A stretch of DNA of 38,038 bases, taken from positions 1 through 38,038 of the IMG/VR virus record IMGVR_UViG_3300047678_000357; one strand, given 5' to 3'. The notes beneath the pieces were generated by a model that ran no database searches, was not told where the DNA came from, and saw only the letters and a program-made list of their open reading frames with translations. The position numbers were made by a program, and so were the translations under genes. Positions 350-38,038 of the stretch are shown in pieces (within the stretch, counting starts at the first letter, position 1; every line of letters starts with the position of its first letter). Source of the DNA: a virus.

Positions 350-386
350 TTATCCACTAACACAAATAGCGTCAGCTCGGTATAAT
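350..386 (+). promoter_or_regulatory. Early promoter with upstream TTATCCACT box
   Basis: Box TTATCCACT at 350..358. GCGTCAGCTCGG is fused to TATAAT at 381..386 (box-to-(-10) distance 31). The downstream leader CATTACAAGTTAAC is shared with the promoters at 5234 and 6193. Confidence 0.65.
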
Positions 387-414
387 GTATTCATTACAAG
401 TTAACATTAAAAAA

Positions 415-2253: not shown

Positions 2254-2300
2254 TTATGCACAGGCACGAGTTAGACATCAAGGCGTCAGCTCGCTATAAT
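2254..2300 (+). promoter_or_regulatory. Promoter with upstream TTATGCACA box
   Basis: Box at 2254..2262. -35-like TTAGAC at 2271..2276. GCGTCAGCTCGC is fused to TATAAT at 2295..2300 (distance 41). ATG 2310 lies only 9 nt after the -10. Confidence 0.6.
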
Positions 2301-2309
2301 GAACATAAC

Positions 2310-3035
2310 ATGGCACAAAAACGTATGATCGATAAAAAGATATCAGTATCCGAACAGGTGTCGAATCTTAGCATACCAGCTCAACTCCTCTACACATGGG
2401 GAATGCCACACGCTGACGACATCGGACTCCTCCACTACTCACCACGGACGCTCAAAGCGACTCTAGTGCCTATGTGGGACATAACACTCGATGACTTCAC
2501 TAAACTCACAAACGAGATAATCAAACAAAAACTCTGGGAAGTGTATGAGTATAAGGATCAGAAGTTCTACAAGATACTAAACTTCACCCGGTACCAGACT
2601 CTCAAGCGCGATAGACAGCCTCAAACCATCCTAAATGTCGACTACTCCAAGGACGCTAAAGACACTTGGAAAAATTTGGAAAACATTGGTTTCCAATTGG
2701 AAAACATTGTCCACCAAATGGAATCTGAAGGGAAGGGAAGTGAAGTGAATAGAAGAGAAGTGAAGAGAAGTGAATATACCCCACTATTTGAGGAGTTCTG
2801 GAAACTCTATCCAAAGAAAGTAGGAAAACCAAAATCAATGGAACTCTGGAGTAACCTCTCCAAAGACGACATGCAGAAAGCCATAGCGGACATTCCGAAA
2901 CGCAAGGCTGACCGCAAGTGGATCGGTGGCTTCATCAAAGACCCAGAGCGGTACATAAAAAACAAGCAATGGGAGGATGACATCATCGAGGATAAACCAA
3001 AGGTCGAAGAAATCAAGAAAACACACAAAATATAA
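2310..3035 (+). CDS. Putative replication initiator/organizer protein
   Basis: The C-terminal block FEEFWKLYPKKVGKPKS...WIGGFIKDPERYIKNKQWEDD resembles the EFWxxYPKK module common in phage replication proteins. The inter-domain linker is encoded by an iteron-like repeat array (2666..2777). Confidence 0.4.
   Translation: MAQKRMIDKKISVSEQVSNLSIPAQLLYTWGMPHADDIGLLHYSPRTLKATLVPMWDITLDDFTKLTNEIIKQKLWEVYEYKDQKFYKILNFTRYQTLKRDRQPQTILNVDYSKDAKDTWKNLENIGFQLENIVHQMESEGKGSEVNRREVKRSEYTPLFEEFWKLYPKKVGKPKSMELWSNLSKDDMQKAIADIPKRKADRKWIGGFIKDPERYIKNKQWEDDIIEDKPKVEEIKKTHKI
2666..2716. repeat. Iteron-like array of five ~10-bp phased units (candidate origin)
   Basis: Units start at 2666, 2676, 2686, 2697 and 2707: TTGGAAAAAT, TTGGAAAACA, TTGGTTTCCAA, TTGGAAAACA, TTGTCCACCA. 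The 13-mer TTGGAAAACATTG occurs at 2676 and 2697. A perfect 14-nt palindrome TTTCCAATTGGAAA lies at 2690..2703. Confidence 0.6.
2727..2777. repeat. Purine-rich tract with four AAGTGAA repeats
   Basis: AAGTGAA occurs at 2738, 2743, 2758 and 2768. Tandem GAGAAGTGAA(G/T) at 2755..2775. The + strand is strongly purine-biased here, directly after the iterons. Confidence 0.55.
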
Positions 3036-3329: not shown

Positions 3330-3575
3330 ATGGAAACAAAACCAAAAATGCCGGATATCGGCACACAATACCGAAAGGTACTCGATAAGCTCCTCGAGGT
3401 GAACGGAGCATGGGTCAACAAGCAGGTATTCATCCGAGAGATGTACCTTACCCAAGCAGGCATGGTCATCTGGAACCTTGAGAATAAGTTCCACTGGCCG
3501 ATCGAACATAGTGACTTCACAGACGAGTTCGGGTTCAAAAGTTATAGGATAACGCCGTCAGGCACACTCTTCTAA
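3330..3575 (+). CDS. Hypothetical protein (81 aa), possibly winged-helix-like
   Basis: ATG 1 nt after the previous stop. The size and the pattern KVLDKLLEVNGAWVNKQVFIREMYLTQAGMVIWNLE are compatible with a small DNA-binding fold. This is weak. Confidence 0.4.
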   Translation: METKPKMPDIGTQYRKVLDKLLEVNGAWVNKQVFIREMYLTQAGMVIWNLENKFHWPIEHSDFTDEFGFKSYRITPSGTLF

Positions 3576-4834: not shown

Positions 4835-5278
4835 ATGAAAGCAACATCAGCAATAGCAAAAGGAAAAAAACTCGAAGACCACGTGGCAGAGCAAATACGC
4901 TCCAAAGGTATAGACCCCCGGGCGTATCGTTCTCATGGATCAGGAAACACAAATACCGAAAAAGGTGATATTTGGACGTCTATGATGATACTCGGTCAAA
5001 ATGTCGGAATCGAGTGTAAAAACCATAAAACATTCGCAATACCAGAGTGGTGGAGACAAACACGCAAACTCGAAAGTCTTGGCCGTGAGCCAGTGCTGGT
5101 GTTCAAAGAAAATCATGCACCAATGGGAGACACATTGTGTGTGATATATCTCGATACGCTGCTTGAGATGGTCAAAGAGGTAAAAGAGCTCAGAGATAAA
5201 CTATCTACTGGACAAAGGATTGATGAGCTTGGGTTGTCCACAGCCTCGCCATTGACTAGTAGCGACAGCTCGCTATAA
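4835..5278 (+). CDS. Putative PD-(D/E)XK Holliday-junction-resolvase-like nuclease
   Basis: GKKLEDHVAEQIRSKG ... GDIW ... GIECKNHK gives a G-x3-E / D / E-x-K arrangement reminiscent of Hjc-type resolvases. Confidence 0.35.
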   Translation: MKATSAIAKGKKLEDHVAEQIRSKGIDPRAYRSHGSGNTNTEKGDIWTSMMILGQNVGIECKNHKTFAIPEWWRQTRKLESLGREPVLVFKENHAPMGDTLCVIYLDTLLEMVKEVKELRDKLSTGQRIDELGLSTASPLTSSDSSL

Positions 5279-5279
5279 T
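5234..5279 (+). promoter_or_regulatory. Early promoter with upstream TTGTCCACA box (inside the 3' end of the preceding gene)
   Basis: Box at 5234..5242. -35 TTGACT at 5252..5257, then a 16-nt spacer containing GCGACAGCTCGC, then TATAAT at 5274..5279 (distance 40). Leader TTATTACAAGTTAAC follows. Confidence 0.7.
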
Positions 5280-5306
5280 GTAGTTATTACAAGTTAACGT
5301 AACAAT

Positions 5307-5840
5307 ATGTTCAAAGAAAAAACAATTGAAAAGCGAAAAGAATCAGTGGCAAAGACGTCAGCGTACATCACTCGCACTGAGAGCTTTGCTGCTAAAATCA
5401 AGAAGGTCGGTTACAACAACAGTCTGGTAGTACTGAGTCAAAGGTGGTATCACAATCAGCTCAACAAGTTCAAAGACGGAGAAATGGTGACCCTAGAAGT
5501 CCACAACCGTAAAGCAAAACGAACGGAGCAACAAAATCGATACTACTGGGGAGTGTACCTTCCACTCATTGCAGCAGAAAAAGGTGAAGGTGACCTCGAT
5601 GCCCTCCACGAACTATTCAAAGGAAAGTTCTTGACCAAAGAAATCAAGGAAGTGCTCGGTGAAAAAGTGAGACTCAAAAAAAGCACCACAGACATGGGAG
5701 TCGGAGAGTTCTGTGAGTACGTCATGAACATTGAGAACCTCACACAAGTCACAGCACCTCCAACGGAAAACTACGACCTCGCTCCTCTTCGTGGTGATAT
5801 CCACAGCGAGCCGTCGCAATCTGACGACAGTCTGCTATAA
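5307..5840 (+). CDS. NinB/Orf-like recombination-associated protein
   Basis: KRTEQQNRYYWGVYLPLIAAEKGEGDLDALHELFKGKFL resembles the QNxxxW block of NinB/HNHc_6-type phage proteins. Assignment is tentative. Confidence 0.4.
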   Translation: MFKEKTIEKRKESVAKTSAYITRTESFAAKIKKVGYNNSLVVLSQRWYHNQLNKFKDGEMVTLEVHNRKAKRTEQQNRYYWGVYLPLIAAEKGEGDLDALHELFKGKFLTKEIKEVLGEKVRLKKSTTDMGVGEFCEYVMNIENLTQVTAPPTENYDLAPLRGDIHSEPSQSDDSLL

Positions 5841-5841
5841 T
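5797..5841 (+). promoter_or_regulatory. Promoter with upstream ATATCCACA box (inside the 3' end of the preceding gene)
   Basis: Box at 5797..5805. GACGACAGTCTGC is fused to TATAAT at 5836..5841 (distance 39). It is followed by a 175-nt non-coding stretch. Confidence 0.55.
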
Positions 5842-5853
5842 AAAATGATAGTG

Positions 5854-5999
5854 TCCTGCAAGCTGGGGATGTGCTGAGTTAGCTGCTCATAAACGGACCA
5901 CTTTAAGTCGGTGACGATAGGTGCGCATTCAGGAATCACATGGTGGATGACAGGGAATGTTGATCCGAACCAAACCCGACCCGTCTTCAGTTTGCAGGA
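5854..5999 (+). ncRNA. Candidate structured RNA or structured 5' leader (~146 nt), family unknown
   Basis: 5854..5868 (tcctgcaagctgggg) pairs with 5985..5999 (cttcagtttgcagga) as 12 Watson-Crick plus 3 G:U pairs, so the helix is only intact on the + strand RNA. Further helices: ACGG 5893/CCGT 5981, GTCGG 5907/CCGAC 5976, GGTGGAT 5942/ATCC-ga-ACC 5963. It starts ~13 nt after the -10 at 5836. Confidence 0.45.
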
Positions 6000-6016: not shown

Positions 6017-6193
6017 ATGAAAACACAAAAAACAAAAAGCAGAATATCTAAGGCAGAGCGCGAAGCCTACGCAATCGTAGGTAAGAAGGGCGGTCTAGCT
6101 ATTGCAAAGAAACTCGGCAAGAAAGGCATGAGTGCACTCGGCAAGGCTGGAGCAGCAAAGCGATGGCCTAAGAAAAAGACAAAAGTATCCTGA
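6017..6193 (+). CDS. Small, highly basic Lys/Gly/Ala-rich protein (58 aa)
   Basis: Start set at ATG 6017 (MKTQKTKSRISKAEREAYAIVGKKGGLAIAKKLGKKGMSALGKAGAAKRWPKKKTKVS), in frame with track ORF 5957..6193. KGG-type repeats. Confidence 0.5.
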   Translation: MKTQKTKSRISKAEREAYAIVGKKGGLAIAKKLGKKGMSALGKAGAAKRWPKKKTKVS

Positions 6194-6238
6194 TATCCAC
6201 AGGGTGCTCTTGTGGTATAGGCGAGCTGACGCTATAAT
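6193..6238 (+). promoter_or_regulatory. Promoter of the chaperonin operon with upstream ATATCCACA box
   Basis: Box at 6193..6201 with an inverted partial copy TGTGGTATA at 6211..6219. GCGAGCTGACGC is fused to TATAAT at 6233..6238 (distance 40). Leader TTATTACTAAGTTAATC follows. Confidence 0.65.
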
Positions 6239-6269
6239 ATAATTATTACTAAGTTAATCATTCATTCAC

Positions 6270-6527
6270 ATGGAAGATACAAAAATAGCAGAGGAAGCAG
6301 CAAAAGAATTACAAGGTCGTGTAGAAGAGTTCAATAAGGAACTCATCCCATTACTCGGAAAGTACGAACTTGGTCTTGGAGCAAGTGCATTCATGAACCC
6401 AAACGGTACAATCGGAGCTCGACCAATCATGTTCGATGCACGAAAAACAGAAGGTGAGAAGACAGAAGCTCCAGTAGAGGAGACTAACACAAAGGAGACA
6501 GAAGCTCCTGCATTATCAGAAGCGTAA
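6270..6527 (+). CDS. Hypothetical protein (85 aa)
   Basis: First ORF after the promoter at 6233. No motif recognised. Confidence 0.55.
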   Translation: MEDTKIAEEAAKELQGRVEEFNKELIPLLGKYELGLGASAFMNPNGTIGARPIMFDARKTEGEKTEAPVEETNTKETEAPALSEA

Positions 6528-6531
6528 AACT

Positions 6532-6780
6532 ATGATCCCTGTACTACTCGGATACATCGCTGGATTAGTGACTGCGGTAATCATCGCGTTGCTACTCGCC
6601 TACTTCAAATCCCCTCTTCAGAGGGTTTTGAAGGTAGCTGAAGAAAAGATAGCGTCTGCCGGTCCAAGACCAAAAGGCTACATATTCGAGGGTGATGATG
6701 AAGTCATCGAAGCGAGAAAGGAAATCATCGCCAAGAACTCCGAGCAGGGAAAGTCAACGCCATTAAGTGAACTACCATAA
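6532..6780 (+). CDS. Small membrane-anchored protein (82 aa)
   Basis: N-terminal hydrophobic helix MIPVLLGYIAGLVTAVIIALLLAYF followed by a charged tail. Confidence 0.55.
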   Translation: MIPVLLGYIAGLVTAVIIALLLAYFKSPLQRVLKVAEEKIASAGPRPKGYIFEGDDEVIEARKEIIAKNSEQGKSTPLSELP

Positions 6781-6782
6781 AT

Positions 6783-7064
6783 ATGAAAATACAACCTCGA
6801 GGAAAAAACATCCTCATCGAAAAGGATAAGCCATCAAGTAAAGAAAGTGAGTATGGCATCGTTACTCCTGACTCAGTAGAGGAGGAGCAAAAAGCGTTCG
6901 GTACAGTCGTAGCAGTAGGACCAGACATCAAAGACATCAAAAAAGGTGACCGAGTAGTGTATGGAGCATACGCAGGTGAGCAAATACAGATCGAAGAAAA
7001 GGGCAAAAAACACGAGTATCGACTGGTCGAAGATCAAGATGTAATCGCGTTCATACAAAAATGA
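6783..7064 (+). CDS. groES: Co-chaperonin GroES/Hsp10 homologue
   Basis: MKIQPRGKNILIEK...SEYGIVTPDS...FGTVVAVGPD...KKGDRVVYGAYAGEQI...VEDQDVIAFI aligns block-for-block with bacterial GroES (IxPLxDRVLV, GIVLP, GxVxAVG, GDxVxFxxYxG, DILAxI). Confidence 0.85.
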   Translation: MKIQPRGKNILIEKDKPSSKESEYGIVTPDSVEEEQKAFGTVVAVGPDIKDIKKGDRVVYGAYAGEQIQIEEKGKKHEYRLVEDQDVIAFIQK

Positions 7065-7309
7065 AACGATACGGATGTAGATACGGACAACCACACGACC
7101 TCGTCCCAACCGCAGAAAGCCCAACTGTTAAATGGGAAGTCTGTCGAATCTGTAACAAGAAGTTCCGTTGGAATAAGGGCTCTAAAAAAAGGATAGACAA
7201 TGTCCGATATCTCGAAGCTCACGCCCGGAACTATGCACAACAAGGCGGTGCAACAAAAAGGCTCTTTATGAAGCTCTACGAGCCAGAGCGATGTATCATA
7301 AAACTATGA
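7061..7309 (+). CDS. Small Cys-containing basic protein between groES and groEL (82 aa)
   Basis: ATGA overlaps at both ends (7061..7064 and 7306..7309). Contains the CRIC pair (WEVCRICNKKF) plus two further Cys residues. Function unknown. Confidence 0.55.
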   Translation: MKRYGCRYGQPHDLVPTAESPTVKWEVCRICNKKFRWNKGSKKRIDNVRYLEAHARNYAQQGGATKRLFMKLYEPERCIIKL

Positions 7310-8853
7310 ATGAAATAACAATCACAACAAAAGACCCATTCGATATAATCCAACGAGCAGTCGTGAAGGCTGTGGACTTGGTAAAACCGACATACGGTCC
7401 AGCAAGCAACAAGGTGATCATCTCAAAATTGACTCACCAATTAGTGGTAGATGACGGTGTGCAAATCATGCGCGACCTCGAGCTAAAAGACCCGAGTGAA
7501 CATGCAGTACTCAAAGTCATCCGAGAAGTAGCTATAAAGACCAACGATCGTGCAGGTGACGGTACAACTGGCTCAATGATTATGCTCGGAGCAATCGTGG
7601 GAGAAGTGGCAACATTTCACCGACGTGATGGACACAAAATTGAGAGAGAACTCAAAAAAGGTCTACTCGAGGCAACAGAACAACTCCGCGCACAGGCAAA
7701 GCCAGTGAAGACTCTTGAAGAACTCAAGAAGGTCGCACGCATCTCATTCGACAACGAGGAGGTGTCAACTCTTATCGCGGATACTTGGTTCAAAGTCGGA
7801 AAGGAAGGAGTCGTCACAGTAGACTCAGGCCCGACAATGAAAACAACCTCTGAACTCTCAGAAGGTATCAAACTCGCGAACGGATACATCAGCCCTCTCA
7901 TGGTCAACAACCCAGAGAGAATGGAGGCTGTACTCGAGAAGCCACTCATCCTCATCACTGACTACCGACTCACAGAAGGCTCAGACATCATTGAACTTCT
8001 CAATCTCATGGCAAAGGCTGGCAAAGGCAAACTCCTTGTTATCGCGGAGAATGTAGAACAAAGTGCACTCTCAACCCTCATCATCAACCAAGCTCACCTC
8101 ATCAATCCAATGACAGGTAAGCCCGGAGTGATGCAGTCCATCGCAGTGGTAGGTCCCGGATCAGACAACTCAACAACTCTCGAAGACATTGCCCTTCTTA
8201 CAGGAGCAACTGTATTCAGTCAGAGCAAAGGAAACCGACTCCAGAATGCGAAAATCGAAGACCTCGGACAAGCAGACCGTGTCATTGCACGCCGAGATGG
8301 TTCAGTCATCATCGGACCAAAGGGCAAGAAGGACGTGATCAAGAAAGCAATCGCTGAACTCACATCAGCACTTGAAGCGGCAGAGCGACAAAGTGACAAA
8401 GACAAAATACAAAAAAGACTCGCATTCTTCGCAAACAAGATAGCAGTCATTCGAGTAGGTGCTCCGACAGATCAGGAACAGCGCGCACTCCGATACAAGA
8501 TTGAAGACTCAATCAACGCGGTCAAGGCAGCATTCAAAGGCGGTGTCGTATGTGGAGGTGGACTCGCACTCTCACGAATCACAACATCAAGCCCTATACT
8601 CAACAACGCGCTCAAAGCTCCAGCAAAACAACTCGTTGATAACATGGGAGGTATAGAACTTGAGCGACCACTCAAGTCAGACGAAGCATGCAATGTCATT
8701 ACAGGAAAAATAGGCAAGTTCATGGACGTGGGAGTCATTGACCCTGTCGACGTTCTGATTGCCGGAGTAGAAAGTGCCGTATCAGTGGCATCTCTCCTCG
8801 TAACTACATCGGGAATGATTGTGGAAAAGCCACGACATCTTCCCAACCAATAA
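7306..8853 (+). CDS. groEL: Group I chaperonin GroEL/Cpn60 homologue (515 aa, no GGM tail)
   Basis: RAGDGTTGSMIMLGAIV (canonical AGDGTTTATVLA), GGVVCGGGLAL (canonical VPGGGVAL), GVIDPVDVLIAGVESAVSVASLLVTTSGMIVEKP (canonical GIIDPTKVTRSALQ...). Start set at ATG 7306, overlapping the upstream stop. Confidence 0.85.
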   Translation: MNEITITTKDPFDIIQRAVVKAVDLVKPTYGPASNKVIISKLTHQLVVDDGVQIMRDLELKDPSEHAVLKVIREVAIKTNDRAGDGTTGSMIMLGAIVGEVATFHRRDGHKIERELKKGLLEATEQLRAQAKPVKTLEELKKVARISFDNEEVSTLIADTWFKVGKEGVVTVDSGPTMKTTSELSEGIKLANGYISPLMVNNPERMEAVLEKPLILITDYRLTEGSDIIELLNLMAKAGKGKLLVIAENVEQSALSTLIINQAHLINPMTGKPGVMQSIAVVGPGSDNSTTLEDIALLTGATVFSQSKGNRLQNAKIEDLGQADRVIARRDGSVIIGPKGKKDVIKKAIAELTSALEAAERQSDKDKIQKRLAFFANKIAVIRVGAPTDQEQRALRYKIEDSINAVKAAFKGGVVCGGGLALSRITTSSPILNNALKAPAKQLVDNMGGIELERPLKSDEACNVITGKIGKFMDVGVIDPVDVLIAGVESAVSVASLLVTTSGMIVEKPRHLPNQ

Positions 8854-9036: not shown

Positions 9037-9083
9037 TTATCCACTCCCGACAGCTCGCTATCTTTCCGAGAGTGTTGTACAAT
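9037..9083 (+). promoter_or_regulatory. Promoter with TTATCCACT box; probable leaderless start
   Basis: Box at 9037..9045. GACAGCTCGCTAT at 9049..9061. TG-TACAAT with the hexamer at 9078..9083 (distance 41). Exactly 6 nt separate the -10 from ATG 9090. Confidence 0.55.
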
Positions 9084-10051: not shown

Positions 10052-10098
10052 TTATGCAACAAATACATCAAAACAACGGGGATCTAGTGACGTAGATT
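10052..10098 (+). promoter_or_regulatory. Weak candidate promoter (box-like TTATGCAAC + TAGATT)
   Basis: TTATGCAAC at 10052..10060 and TAGATT at 10093..10098, at the family-typical distance of 41. Both elements are degenerate. Confidence 0.3.
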
Positions 10099-10143
10099 AT
10101 CGCACCTAGTCAGGGTGACCGTGGTACAGGCTCTGAGTACCGA

Positions 10144-10248
10144 ATGACGATTGGCGGAGTGGCTTATCGCAGAGTATGAAAACTTGGAACTCGTCCTTGC
10201 CTCATCCAAGAGAGGTGGGGACCGCAGGTTCAAATCCTGCATCGTCAT
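10144..10248 (+). ncRNA. tRNA-like element with a non-canonical anticodon domain
   Basis: 8-bp closing helix ATGACGAT 10144..10151 / ATCGTCAT 10241..10248. D-arm-like GCGG-AGTGGCTTA-TCGC at 10154..10170. Canonical T-arm GCAGG-TTCAAAT-CCTGC at 10224..10240. The 52 nt in between form GAGT-(13-nt loop)-ACTC plus a long hairpin GTCC..GCCTC-ATCCAAGA-GAGGT..GGAC. No encoded CCA. Confidence 0.4.
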
Positions 10249-10263
10249 TAAACATTAAAAGCC

Positions 10264-14778: not shown

Positions 14779-14818
14779 GGGAGGTGTATAAGACGCATAG
14801 ACAAGAGGAAGTGCTAAG

Positions 14819-14841
14819 GGGGAGACATCTCCCCTTTTATT
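14819..14841 (+). terminator. Rho-independent terminator
   Basis: GGGGAG-ACAT-CTCCCC stem-loop at 14819..14834 followed by TTTTATT. Confidence 0.75.
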
Positions 14842-14887
14842 GTCCACAGTTGACATACTTGTACCACTCATGTAGCAGTGTTACACT
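14840..14887 (+). promoter_or_regulatory. Structural-gene promoter with TTGTCCACA box
   Basis: Box at 14840..14848, overlapping the terminator T-tract. TTGACA at 14850..14855 and TTGTAC at 14859..14864. TG-n-TACACT with the hexamer at 14882..14887 (17-nt spacer from TTGTAC; box distance 42). Confidence 0.55.
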
Positions 14888-17069: not shown

Positions 17070-17350
17070 GAAAAATAAAACCAAAAGTAGAAAAGTACAG
17101 TTCGGGACCAATGGTCAAGGACACAAAGTCCAAACCGATATACCCTACTTTCCGAATGGACTTGGAGTTCCTGCCAGAAGCCAAGGACTGGAAGGTCGGA
17201 CAAAGCTATGAGATCACCATGAATGTAAAAATGATTGGTCTCTCACAGAGTCGGTACGACAACAGTGCAGAGTTTGAAATCAGAGAAGTTGAGACTGCCG
17301 ATGCCGAGGAGTCTGAAGACGAAGGTGATAGTGAAGAAGTGGAAAAATAA
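17066..17350 (+). CDS. Hypothetical protein with an acidic C-terminal tail (94 aa)
   Basis: ATGA overlap with the portal stop. C-terminus ETADAEESEDEGDSEEVEK. Confidence 0.5.
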   Translation: MRKIKPKVEKYSSGPMVKDTKSKPIYPTFRMDLEFLPEAKDWKVGQSYEITMNVKMIGLSQSRYDNSAEFEIREVETADAEESEDEGDSEEVEK

Positions 17351-17364
17351 ACATTACAAGTAAC

Positions 17365-17400
17365 TTATCCACAGCATGTCTCGTTCTGGGCATGTACAAA
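17365..17400 (+). promoter_or_regulatory. Candidate late promoter with a perfect TTATCCACA box
   Basis: Box at 17365..17373. TG-TACAAA at 17393..17400 (distance 30). The -10 is weak. Confidence 0.4.
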
Positions 17401-18216: not shown

Positions 18217-18244
18217 AACTATTATTCACTAGCATTATAAAATC

Positions 18245-19261: not shown

Positions 19262-19273
19262 GCCGTGGTGTTA

Positions 19274-19289
19274 AAACATTATTAACTTA
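19274..19289 (+). promoter_or_regulatory. Conserved leader 16-mer AAACATTATTAACTTA (copy 1)
   Basis: Identical 16-mer at 30342..30357. It ends 13 nt before ATG 19303 and contains TTAACTTA. Confidence 0.5.
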
Positions 19290-19302
19290 ATCTAAAATCA
19301 CC

Positions 19303-25984: not shown

Positions 25985-26881
25985 ATGGCAAGATTTGGAA
26001 GAACATTTCCCATAAAAGCACATATAACAAGATTCAGAATCTTGAGTACTTCACTTTCACTAAAAGTATTAGTTATAGGCGGAGGAGGAGGTGGTGCAGG
26101 ATTAGGTGGTAATCTTACTGGAGCTGGAGGAGGTGGTGCAGGGGGTTACCAATATGATGCAACTCATTCTGTGAGTGTAGGAGCATATTCTGTCACTGTT
26201 GGTACTGGTGGTGCAGGAGGTAGTAACGCTCAAGGTGGTCATGGTAATGATAGTATTTTTGATACAATAACAGCAACTGGCGGAGGAGCGGGACAATATG
26301 GTAATAATACTTCGCCATCCATTGATGGTGGCTCAGGCGGTGGAGGTTCTAATACTAATGCTGGAGGTGCTGGTTCTCAAGGTAGTAATGGTGGACAAGG
26401 TAATTTAGCTGGACTTGCTGGTGGTGGAGGAGGAGGAGCATCTGCAGTCGGTGGTGATGGTACCGTTGGTGGATTGGGTGGTAATGGTGGTAATGGTACA
26501 GCCAATTCTATAACAGGTTCATCTGTAACTTATGCTGGTGGTGGGGGCGGTGGTTCAAATGGTACAGGTGGCACAGGGGGTACAGGTGGGGGAGCAAATG
26601 GGGGTTCATCTGGTGCTTCAGGAGGGTCTGGGACAGCAAATACAGGTGGTGGTGGAGGAGGAGGAGGAGCAAATGGTGTCGGAGTTGGTGGTTCTGGAGG
26701 GTCAGGTGTTGTTATTCTAAGTTATATCACTGCTAACTATTCAGGGTATACTGTAACAGGTGGAACAATTACAACAGATGGAGCAAATACGGTTCATAAG
26801 TTTACTACAAGCGGAACATTCACAATATCAGTAAATAGTCTGGTTTCAAGTGTAAGTACATGGCTAATGATGGGAATATAA
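25985..26881 (+). CDS. Glycine-rich domain protein (tail fibre-associated type)
   Basis: VLVIGGGGGGAGLGG...GGGGAGG followed by long GGxGG/GxGG runs. C-terminal non-repetitive beta domain. Confidence 0.55.
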   Translation: MARFGRTFPIKAHITRFRILSTSLSLKVLVIGGGGGGAGLGGNLTGAGGGGAGGYQYDATHSVSVGAYSVTVGTGGAGGSNAQGGHGNDSIFDTITATGGGAGQYGNNTSPSIDGGSGGGGSNTNAGGAGSQGSNGGQGNLAGLAGGGGGGASAVGGDGTVGGLGGNGGNGTANSITGSSVTYAGGGGGGSNGTGGTGGTGGGANGGSSGASGGSGTANTGGGGGGGGANGVGVGGSGGSGVVILSYITANYSGYTVTGGTITTDGANTVHKFTTSGTFTISVNSLVSSVSTWLMMGI

Positions 26882-29404: not shown

Positions 29405-30343
29405 ATGGCAAAATCATATACACAAGGTAGAAATCTATATGGGGTCTGGAGCAAAAACCCAGACACAAGCAATCTCGCTTACGGAGATCAGATGGCGAAT
29501 GACGACTATCGTCATTTGTGTGCCTTGAAAGATTGGCCATTTCTAGAAAGAAGCCGAACTCTCTTGACAACAGCTCTTACGCAAGCAACGACACTTCCAT
29601 ACGACTGTGACCTCGTTCGAGAAGTCTCAGTCATTCCAACTGGATCAACAATTCGATACACACCAAGGGAATGTACAAACAGCGCACAATGGGACATGCT
29701 CAACCTCACACCGTACAAATCTGATATTCCAGAGTGGTACTTCGTGTTCGCTGGACAACTATTGCTCTGGCCAACTCCTGTCAATACAGGAAACACAATC
29801 TATATTCGACAAAGAAGTCGAGTAATTGACCTCTCAGTCGTAGACTACACAACAGGAAACATCAGCGCTATTGCAAACGGTGCAACCGCAGTCACAGGAT
29901 CAGGAACCACTTGGACATCACAAATGGTTGGTCGATCAATTCGTATCACAATGACCGATACCGCAGGTACTGGAGATGGTCTCTGGTACGAAATCGCTGG
30001 TGTCTCAAGTGCAACCGCACTGACACTTACACGAGCATACGGAGGCACTACCATTGCGGCAGGCTCCGCAGCGTACACGATTGGTCAGATGCCTCTATTA
30101 CCAGAAGCATTCCATGACTTGCCGTGGCAATGGGCAGCAGGAACTTATTGGCAAAAAGAGTCCGATAAGGAACGTGCCGATGCATTCCTCGGTGCTCACG
30201 GTATGCCTCCAACAGGAGGTAGATCGGGAACCGGACGTGTTGCAGAGCTTATCTCAGGATACAGTTCGCAGTCGACAAACATGGTCATCGATAACGGACT
30301 AGAGCAAGCAGAAATAAATCCGAATCTTGTAATCAGTTTATAA
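29405..30343 (+). CDS. Hypothetical virion protein (312 aa)
   Basis: + strand ORF. A possible adaptor or neck protein by position only. Confidence 0.45.
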   Translation: MAKSYTQGRNLYGVWSKNPDTSNLAYGDQMANDDYRHLCALKDWPFLERSRTLLTTALTQATTLPYDCDLVREVSVIPTGSTIRYTPRECTNSAQWDMLNLTPYKSDIPEWYFVFAGQLLLWPTPVNTGNTIYIRQRSRVIDLSVVDYTTGNISAIANGATAVTGSGTTWTSQMVGRSIRITMTDTAGTGDGLWYEIAGVSSATALTLTRAYGGTTIAAGSAAYTIGQMPLLPEAFHDLPWQWAAGTYWQKESDKERADAFLGAHGMPPTGGRSGTGRVAELISGYSSQSTNMVIDNGLEQAEINPNLVISL

Positions 30344-30357
30344 ACATTATTAACTTA
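30342..30357 (+). promoter_or_regulatory. Conserved leader 16-mer AAACATTATTAACTTA (copy 2)
   Basis: Identical to 19274..19289. It ends 11 nt before ATG 30369. Confidence 0.5.
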
Positions 30358-30368
30358 TCAAAAATATC

Positions 30369-34788: not shown

Positions 34789-34845
34789 TCGCTATCGACT
34801 TATCCACAATCATAGCGAGCGAAAACATTATAAACTTGATACAAT
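34789..34845 (+). promoter_or_regulatory. Lysis-cassette promoter: perfect TTATCCACA box inside an inverted repeat, extended -10, leaderless start
   Basis: TCGCTAT at 34789..34795 and ATAGCGA at 34812..34818 flank the box at 34800..34808. TG-a-TACAAT with the hexamer at 34840..34845 (distance 40). Exactly 6 nt separate the -10 from ATG 34852. Confidence 0.6.
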
Positions 34846-36718: not shown

Positions 36719-36765
36719 TTGTCCACAGTTATCCACTTGCAACAATGGCGACAGCTCGCTATACT
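36719..36765 (+). promoter_or_regulatory. Promoter with tandem boxes TTGTCCACA + TTATCCACT
   Basis: Boxes at 36719..36727 and 36729..36737, 10 bp apart. -35 TTGCAA at 36737..36742, then a 17-nt spacer with GCGACAGCTCGC, then TATACT at 36760..36765. Confidence 0.65.
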
Positions 36766-36807
36766 ATACATACAAAGGTCGAACATTATAAACACAAAAA
36801 AACAACA

Positions 36808-37911: not shown

Positions 37912-38038
37912 TGAACCCACGAGAAAAATTGATACTCGAATCAGCACTCAAAGCTCTCGAGAATCTACAAATCATACGAAGTGACGATTACGAGATATCA
38001 CACTCAATGCAGGTCGTCATCGCAGAACTTGTCAACAT
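37911..38038 (+). CDS. 5' part of the junction-spanning small ORF (continues at 33..78)
   Basis: TAATG overlap with the upstream stop. MNPREKLILESALKALENLQIIRSDDYEISHS then runs into the terminal repeat in frame. Confidence 0.5.
   Translation, partial: MNPREKLILESALKALENLQIIRSDDYEISHSMQVVIAELVN
38007..38038. repeat. Terminal direct repeat, right copy
   Basis: Identical to 1..32. Confidence 0.9.

Follow-up and report, generated by a model that had tools for sequence, protein, structure and literature searches.

DnaA-box-like words in one orientation and at whole-turn spacings ahead of promoters of a chaperonin-encoding groundwater phage family

A complete phage genome and its relatives

The window, by which we mean the whole 38,038-nucleotide stretch of viral DNA analysed here (IMG/VR record IMGVR_UViG_3300047678_000357), carries the same 32 bases at both ends (1-32 = 38007-38038). 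The assembly is thus circularly closed at 38,006 bp and represents a complete phage genome. Our subject is a 9-bp word identical or close to the canonical DnaA box, TTATCCACA, which stands ahead of its proposed transcription units. The window has a GC content of 45% and all of its credible genes lie on the + strand. Those that could be recognised encode Erf (415-1128), a replication initiator whose gene contains iterons (within the open-reading frame 2256-3035), a C5 methylase, RusA-like and NinB-like genes, GroES, GroEL (7291-8853), a ParB-methylase fusion, the small and large terminase subunits (the latter TerL), and a tail/injection protein with a lysozyme-like domain.

Half of the genome gave zero megablast matches to GenBank phages, tblastn of TerL and GroEL against the same phages gave distant matches only, with no close relative, and the Erf and 798-aa tail proteins recovered zero relatives as IMG/VR queries. 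Relatives were obtained by three routes: TerL and GroEL searches of IMG/VR (L001-L007, L018/L019), a metagenome scan with a GroEL alignment (39 further loci), and a look-up of homologues of a small conserved protein (L059-L062). An exact IMG/VR search for the promoter word GACAGCTCGCTATAAT returned unrelated chance matches (L008-L016), which were discarded. The relatives from the three routes are chaperonin-encoding phages with longest contigs of ~34-42 kb and a GC content of 35-60%, many of them from groundwater metagenomes, for example 0.1-um Hainich fractions, and the family is so far undescribed.

DnaA-box-like words head the transcription units

An earlier note on this DNA had listed eleven + strand copies of the word and proposed that they precede essentially every promoter, in a single orientation. 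Each of the eleven is present, as follows, together with one terminator-like hairpin that adjoins a box.

350..358, + strand: box TTATCCACT, 31 bp before TATAAT (381-386); heads the Erf operon
2254..2262, + strand: box TTATGCACA, with -35 TAGACA at 2272, 41 bp before TATAAT (2295-2300); heads the replication-initiator operon
5234..5242, + strand: box TTGTCCACA, inside the RusA-like gene (3' end), with -35 TTGACT at 5252 and TATAAT at 5274-5279 (40 bp)
5797..5805, + strand: box ATATCCACA, inside the NinB-like gene (3' end), 39 bp ahead of TATAAT (5836-5841)
6193..6201, + strand: box ATATCCACA, with -35 TTGTGG at 6210 and TATAAT at 6233-6238 (40 bp); heads the chaperonin cassette (GroES, zinc-finger protein, GroEL)
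9037..9045, + strand: box TTATCCACT, with a second element, dyad B (see below), at +2, TATCTT at 9059-9064 (22 bp) and a second -10-like TACAAT at 9078-9083 (41 bp)
14816..14836, + strand: intrinsic-terminator-like hairpin and T-run, ending the packaging operon directly before box 14840
14840..14848, + strand: box TTGTCCACA, abutting TTGACA (14850), upstream of the portal gene; -10 assignment uncertain
17365..17373, + strand: box TTATCCACA, upstream of a long block of structural genes (17425 onward); weak promoter hexamers
34800..34808, + strand: box TTATCCACA, within the 161-nt gap that precedes the lysis cassette, in the loop of the inverted repeat TCGCTAT/ATAGCGA
36719..36727, + strand: box TTGTCCACA, the distal member of a tandem; the -10 TATACT (36760-36765) follows at 41 bp
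36729..36737, + strand: proximal copy of the tandem, TTATCCACT, abutting the -35 TTGCAA (36737-36742), 31 bp before the -10

The tandem of two boxes 10 bp apart at 36719/36729 is thus real, and so is the arrangement of one box in one orientation heading each proposed unit, which holds for the ~10 units of the window. Measured from box start to -10 start, the distances are 31 bp (350, 36729), 30 bp (17365) and 39-42 bp (2254, 5234, 5797, 6193, 9037, 14840, 34800, 36719), as had been reported. The -10 is unambiguous only in the seven early promoters, where TATAAT-like hexamers abut a conserved GCGACAGCTCGC element. A weaker word, TTATGCAAC at 10052, had also been put forward as a box, and nothing backs this site beyond the word itself.

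The word is concentrated in regulatory DNA

We set coding DNA apart from regulatory zones, defined as intergenic DNA plus the final 50 nt of each gene, which take up 12% of the genome. The degenerate pattern TTRTSCACW matches the window ten times on both strands, against 3.74 +/- 1.76 in dinucleotide-shuffled sequence, and none of 100 shuffles reached ten; nine matches are on the + strand, and the single - strand copy (12596) is intragenic. With up to one mismatch to TTATCCACA allowed, the matches number 21 where 9.1 would be expected, and on the + strand 11 of 16 are intergenic or in the final ~50 nt of a gene, zones which make up ~12% of the genome.

Counts of this kind are open to the objection that the degenerate pattern was set after the sites had been seen, so that the enrichment might be a chance or compositional artefact. 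We compared all 6- to 8-mers between regulatory zones and coding DNA, with no word presupposed. In the window the top 7-mer was TATCCAC (7 regulatory vs 0 coding) and the top 8-mer TTATCCAC (5 vs 0); in the relatives alone (given as 268 kb and also as about 324 kb) TTATCCAC occurred 22 times in regulatory zones against 3 in coding DNA (p about 1e-14), making it the best 8-mer that is not AT-rich. The statistics thus hold for the window and for independent relatives alike. The exact word TTATCCACA, counted over 362 kb of family DNA, is far from evenly spread, with 24 copies in + strand regulatory zones against 2 in + strand coding DNA, and 3 and 3 on the - strand. A position table built from sites with up to two mismatches was too noisy and was not used.

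Boxes are phased to the promoter

Family-wide, 28 boxes are followed within 80 nt by a good sigma-70-like promoter; its -10 falls at +40/41 from the box start in 13 of these, and its -35 at +17 to +19 in 12, the -35 score peaking at +17/18. Among 64 + strand boxes with a decent -10, the offsets were 39-41 bp (28 boxes), 30-31 (6), 22 (3) and 51-52 (2), and the proposed helical phasing was borne out with a 10-bp period (Rayleigh p about 2e-4). Even a single orthologous promoter can move by one turn: ahead of the initiator gene the distance is 41 bp in the window and 51 bp in L059 (box 3603), a shift of exactly 10 bp. Most boxes therefore cover about -53 to -45 and lie just upstream of the -35; a placement at about -43 to -35 is less frequent, and displacement by one turn in either direction is rare.

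These whole-turn classes suggest a protein site that must face RNA polymerase. The layout is class-I-like, with a box upstream of a recognisable -35/-10 pair and on a single helical face. The separate -35, found 17-19 bp (or 8-10 bp) past the box start, agrees with the view in the earlier note that the box is an upstream factor site, and together with the spacing it rules out that the box is itself the -35. A role at the RNA level is ruled out as well, the spacing being tied to the -10 and not to the stop codon.

DnaA-box complexes are reported to block transcribing polymerase in an orientation-dependent manner, and a box bound by DnaA or another protein might act as a roadblock or insulator at the end of an operon, sparing the next promoter from occlusion by read-through. 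Several features are of the kind that such a role predicts: boxes often lie directly after the upstream stop codon (350 in the window; 1949, 6307, 8804 and 11996 in L059; also in L038 and L063), box 350 beginning immediately past the TAG of the 59-349 open-reading frame; boxes 14840 and 36719 directly follow terminator-like hairpins, the latter closing the lysis genes; and an intrinsic terminator is missing at most unit boundaries. However, the distance to the stop codon varies from inside the gene (-44) to +14, whilst the tight 39-41 bp coupling to the -10 and its whole-turn shifts point to a face-specific tie to the promoter and not to the upstream gene end, and we regard a roadblock as an improbable main function.

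Still less probable is that the boxes serve mainly as a sponge, in which phage DNA titrates host DnaA and shuts off initiation of the host chromosome, promoter proximity being secondary. Each 38-kb genome brings eleven good boxes, a number to be multiplied by the copies of the phage, titration of the datA and mioC type is well documented (PMC5835720), and T5-like phages keep DnaA-box clusters with a proposed non-replicative role (10.1101/866236); yet titration requires no fixed orientation, no helical spacing to the -35/-10 and no arrangement of one site per unit. Both the roadblock and the titration roles are compatible with DnaA binding, but they explain the geometry less well.

A second element in the early promoters

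The seven early promoters share a further feature that the earlier note did not describe, a 12-bp block, GCGACAGCTCGC, which lies directly before the TATAAT and fills the -35/-10 spacer. We refer to it as dyad B: its ends form GCGA-N4-TCGC, and both orientations occur. The copies, listed without strand, are as follows.

369..380: dyad B GCGTCAGCTCGG, filling the -35/-10 spacer
2283..2294: dyad B GCGTCAGCTCGC
5262..5273: dyad B GCGACAGCTCGC
5806..5817: dyad B GCGAGCCGTCGC, abutting box 5797
5824-5835: degenerate second copy ACGACAGTCTGC, next to the -10 of promoter 5797
6221..6232: dyad B in inverted orientation, GCGAGCTGACGC
9047..9058: dyad B CCGACAGCTCGC
36748..36759: dyad B GCGACAGCTCGC

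Dyad B is conserved in the closer relatives as GCGACGGCTCGC and GCGAGCCGTCGC. It lies 1-2, 10 or 19-20 bp downstream of the box, and these spacings are the origin of the helical classes that the earlier note had recognised. It looks like the operator of a separate dimeric repressor, probably phage-encoded.

Downstream of promoter 5797 there is in addition a conserved leader of ~115 nt (5842-5956), a long leader or possible small RNA ahead of a very basic 78-aa protein; the block GGTGAC(G/A)(A/C)(T/A)AGG(T/G)G within it is kept in L059, L061 and L062, and its hairpins show a few compensatory changes.

Boxes persist at orthologous positions

Boxes recur at orthologous gene boundaries, at eight positions, in relatives whose proteins share 45-80% identity. 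The counterparts, with that of box 350 in addition, are as follows (window box, location, relatives).

350, past the 59-349 open-reading frame: L059 1949, with the same 31-bp spacing
2254, after the SSB-like gene and before rep: L019 2496, L059 3603 (51 bp), L062 3359, L061 3358
5234, end of RusA: L007 1299/L031 5901, L059 6307, L062 7302, L061 6884
5797, end of NinB: L019 8189, L059 8431, L062 8746, L061 8766
6193, before the chaperonin cassette: L006 841, L059 8804, L062 9125, L061 9122
9037, after GroEL: L059 11996, L062 12096, L061 11978, each also with the double -10 arrangement
14840, before the portal gene: L006 10318, L059 18648, L062 18652, L038 14833, L063 11183
17365, before the scaffold/capsid block: positional orthologues L038 16855, L063 13330
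36719, after the lysis genes: L062 394

At these orthologous boxes the flanks, intervening sequences and spacers have diverged, and the AT-rich word is retained in relatives of 56-60% GC. Several intergenic copies on the - strand stand ahead of divergent - strand promoter-like sites (382 and 1615 in L038; 2090 and 2879 in L034), which shows that orientation is fixed relative to transcription. Same-orientation tandems spaced by 10-12 bp occur at 36719/36729 in the window, at 6796-6830 in L024 and at 2105/2116 in L039. Some promoter-like sites of the relatives carry one- or two-mismatch versions of the word at the same offset (TTATCAACA, TTATCCCCA, TTGTCCCCT). The proposal that a box precedes essentially every promoter therefore stands for the proposed units of the window and for many units of the relatives, but not throughout, as some strong promoter-like sites in the relatives are box-less.

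The survival of orthologous boxes amid diverged flanks also bears on whether the arrangement could be functionless, inherited with duplicated promoter cassettes. Several promoters do share dyad B and a leader and could be paralogous copies, but the sequences between box and dyad are unrelated among the window promoters. Taken with the word statistics, the orthologous boxes effectively refute chance, artefact or functionless ancestry, to which we assign a negligible probability.

The putative replication origin behaves differently. An origin-like region lies inside the initiator gene (2650-2775), with TTGGAAAACA iterons in direct and inverted repeats followed by a purine-rich GAAGNGAAG tract; relatives keep the same layout with entirely different iterons in each. 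The suggestion that TTGTCCACC at 2707 ties the box to the iteron array finds no counterpart in the origins of L059, L061, L062 and L019.

Is the word a DnaA box?

The family consensus is exactly TTATCCACA, the canonical DnaA 9-mer, or aG-TTATCCACA with the preceding bases. For comparison, the E. coli consensus is TTWTNCACA (Schaper and Messer), with a preference at position 5 of C > A, G > T (PMC5835720). Three of the eleven window boxes (17365, 34800, 2254) fit this stringent consensus, and the remaining eight are one base off it, by 9T or 3G (three each) or 1A (two). Single-base variants that lie mainly in regulatory zones are 9T (13), 3G (7), 5G (5), 1A (4), 1C (3) and 5A (2), and changes at positions 4, 8 and, for the most part, 6 show no regulatory-zone enrichment. 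Position 5 is degenerate with C preferred, as in DnaA boxes (C 24, G 5, A 2, T 1, each at least equal to the + strand coding count). The variant TTGTCCACA is the Streptomyces-type DnaA-box consensus. The probability that an unrelated protein would match the exact 9-mer by chance is about 1e-5, which makes a DnaA-type recognition helix much the most likely reader. A DnaA-type identity is thus plausible, and the persistence of the AT-rich word in relatives of 56-60% GC also speaks for it.

Searches for DnaA domain IV (tblastn, hidden Markov model and phmmer against six-frame open-reading frames, with E. coli and B. subtilis DnaA queries) matched L038 alone and found none in the window. The L038 (14092-14427) and L063 (10001-10342) genes encode 111-113-aa proteins with the DnaA C-terminal motif FGKDHTTI(I/L)YHC(R/Q)K, matching Pfam Bac_DnaA_C at an E-value of 2.6e-6 (below Pfam's cut-off) and HTH_38; this protein type forms four clusters only in a big protein collection. 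In both genomes the gene sits between TerL and the portal gene, and its stop codon abuts a box. The presence of such a protein supports the DnaA-type nature of the sites. In L063 the promoter that comes next is bracketed by a box upstream and, across its -10/+1 region, a second one in inverted orientation.

The earlier note had allowed for either host DnaA or a phage protein of the same specificity. The second option is real for the relatives with this DnaA-like helix-turn-helix (HTH), but the window holds no detectable DnaA-like domain. Nor did its specific candidate, the product of 3330..3575, survive: it has no PDB sequence match and no homologue in any relative, and was rejected as a family-wide binder.

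A better candidate for a phage-encoded reader is the product of 7061-7309, an 82-aa, basic, zinc-finger-like protein encoded between GroES and GroEL. It is the only small basic protein conserved family-wide, occurring in every relative with 50-77% identity and a pI (isoelectric point) of 10, its conservation equals that of GroEL, and it has invariant Cys/His (C6, H12, C28, C31, H54) and basic residues. Its AlphaFold2 (AF2) model is confident (pLDDT 84), and a Foldseek search with it matched no solved fold at E < 0.6, so that the protein may bind DNA. If a family-conserved protein of this kind reads the box, it would be the phage's own transcription activator or late-gene switch, and the identity with the DnaA box would be coincidence or mimicry. 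The variant spectrum, in which 9T is common and 3T absent, is not exactly DnaA-like, and one sub-lineage (L038, L063) encodes a DnaA-type HTH of its own, both of which favour a phage reader. Against it, an arbitrary 9-bp specificity would have to equal TTATCCACA by the small chance given above, no HTH or DnaA-like domain is detectable in the window, boxes are present at the first early promoter too, before any phage protein exists, and the Rep iterons diverge between relatives whilst the box does not. We consider such a phage binder rather unlikely, although less so than the roadblock and titration roles. The 7061-7309 gene is part of a family-wide cassette (6270-8853) encoding an acidic 85-aa protein, a membrane protein, GroES, the 82-aa protein and GroEL.

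Host DnaA as a candidate transcription factor of the phage

The boxes are shown to exist, to be enriched and to have a set orientation, spacing and conservation, and we read them as genuine cis-regulatory sites. Their best reading, which we hold to be somewhat better supported than not, is that of DnaA-box-type operators through which host DnaA modulates sigma-70-type promoters. We infer host DnaA as the binder from the sequence of the sites and from gene content: Pfam, PHROG and NCBIfam searches of about 40 window proteins found zero sigma factors, RNA polymerases, repressors or HTH proteins, and because boxes head every unit, including the first, and neither a sigma factor, an RNA polymerase nor a DnaA-like HTH was found, a host protein is the simplest server. 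The Rep iterons, sites for a phage protein, diverge while the box persists, which we also count in favour of host DnaA. DnaA is a known transcription factor that stimulates lambda pR (PMC8203912), and promoter-located DnaA boxes bring about repression of mioC and dnaA but activation elsewhere (PMC5835720, PMC8203912).

Under this reading, host DnaA would bind the box through its C-terminal HTH, as a monomer or a short same-orientation array, and, held on one fixed face upstream of the -35, it would contact RNA polymerase and so tune initiation. Phage transcription would in this way be coupled to the DnaA pool or its nucleotide state, and hence to host replication and growth state; in the early promoters the spacer dyad would add a separate repression, probably phage-encoded. 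As to the sign of regulation, our guess leans to stimulation, especially at the weak late promoters. More tentatively, and with odds that we put below even, host DnaA may be the common transcription factor of each unit throughout this groundwater phage family, with one sub-lineage having captured a free-standing DnaA DNA-binding domain.

Several observations weigh against host DnaA as an operator-bound regulator. The -10 hexamers assigned to boxes 14840, 17365 and 34800 are weak guesses, making the promoter link less secure there, and strong promoter-like sites without a box exist in the relatives, as described above. Neither 9T, the most frequent variant (13 sites), nor 3G, used seven times, fits the E. 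coli consensus, whilst 3T is never used. Promoter-near DnaA boxes often repress rather than activate (PMC5835720), and the 7061-7309 product could be a phage-encoded binder. The sole clue to the host, a weak one, is a single relative binned in a Parcubacteria metagenome-assembled genome.

Our literature searches returned no description of boxes at every promoter of a phage. If the reading is true, phage gene expression would read out host replication and growth state, and phages would have a novel means of sensing the physiology of the host, or else of hijacking or titrating its initiator. Such stereotyped boxes would offer a simple and testable model for a contact between DnaA and RNA polymerase from a defined position. 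They are also easy to recognise, and can serve as a signature by which promoters and operons are mapped across a large phage family that is uncultivated. Binding by DnaA would also have a bearing on DnaA-box-like words in other phages such as T5.

Other features of the window and its relatives

The product of 1826-2248 (140 aa) has a C-terminus, ...AEDIPY, that resembles the acidic tip of single-stranded-DNA-binding (SSB) proteins, and its gene stands where an SSB gene would, after Erf; the product is probably the phage's SSB, although it has no Pfam or PHROG match. Dense GGAGGAGGAG / CTGGTGGTG repeats at 25985-26881 point to a glycine-rich repetitive structural protein. Two relatives encode an RNA ligase and a polynucleotide kinase-phosphatase, a tRNA-repair pair (L061 4138-6421, L062 5125-6931), which the window does not have, and L061 (11779-11976) encodes a protein of the Acb2/Tad1-hairpin family, a candidate anti-defence sponge, likewise absent from the window.

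tRNA and Rfam scans of the window were negative. At ~10143-10260, in a 217-nt gap, there is a stretch resembling the 3' part of a tRNA, with a T-arm GCAGGTTCAAATCCTGC and a possible acceptor stem TGACGAT...ATCGTCA; ARAGORN and Rfam (gathering and E-value modes) match nothing in it.

Start codons in the window stand without a Shine-Dalgarno sequence, and A-rich words such as AAAACCATG precede them. A recurrent AAACATTATWAAC / ATTACAAGTTAAC motif lies 10-20 nt ahead of start codons of this AAAACCATG type, and may serve to enhance translation initiation or act as a late promoter element that lacks a box. Its copies are at:

393-405
5286-5298
6243-6257
17348-17364
18220-18244
19273-19290
30340-30358
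34826-34841
36783-36795

Comparison with known systems

Promoter-proximal DnaA operators are known from bacteria: E. coli dnaA, mioC and nrdAB, B. subtilis sda, C. crescentus gcrA/ftsZ/mipZ and S. meliloti nurR. The phage sites resemble them in having an asymmetric 9-bp TTATNCACA near a sigma-70-type promoter, singly or in a short same-orientation array, and at such bacterial promoters DnaA is an activator or a repressor according to place and nucleotide state (PMC8203912, PMC5835720). Unlike them, the sites described here are phage-borne, have a stereotyped position and orientation for each unit and are kept across a virus family, DnaA binding being putative in this case.

Lambda pR is a precedent for a phage promoter dependent on host DnaA, with a proposed contact to RNA polymerase through its beta subunit (PMC8203912). 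The difference is that lambda has one replication-linked promoter, serving transcriptional activation of ori-lambda, whereas here a stereotyped upstream site is found at every unit. The DnaA boxes of lambda lie downstream of the promoter.

The injection-stop (iss) region of T5-like phages shares with our family the conservation of DnaA or near-DnaA boxes outside a replication origin (TTATCCACA, TTATGCACA, TTATCAACA, TTATCCCCA), the variants TTATCAACA and TTATCCCCA being termed DnaA* boxes in T5 (10.1101/866236). There, eight boxes, in pairs 3 bp apart, lie in inverted repeats of an untranslated terminal region, where a role in DNA injection has been proposed, and are not promoter-linked; the window, in contrast, has single boxes (and one 10-bp tandem) at promoters, in a circularly closed genome.

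In T4 middle promoters the MotA box, at about -30, takes the place of the -35 and depends on the phage proteins MotA and AsiA. The likeness is that a 9-bp word specific to phage promoters is paired with the -10 of host sigma-70. Here, however, the -35 is kept and the box stands further upstream, in whole-turn classes, and Pfam, PHROG and NCBIfam matched no MotA/AsiA-like gene among the window proteins.

Finally, DnaA boxes adjoin iterons in plasmid and phage origins, and the initiator gene of the window similarly combines iterons, a purine-rich tract and the word TTGTCCACC at 2707. That word, however, has two mismatches and is not conserved; the conserved boxes of this family are those at its promoters.

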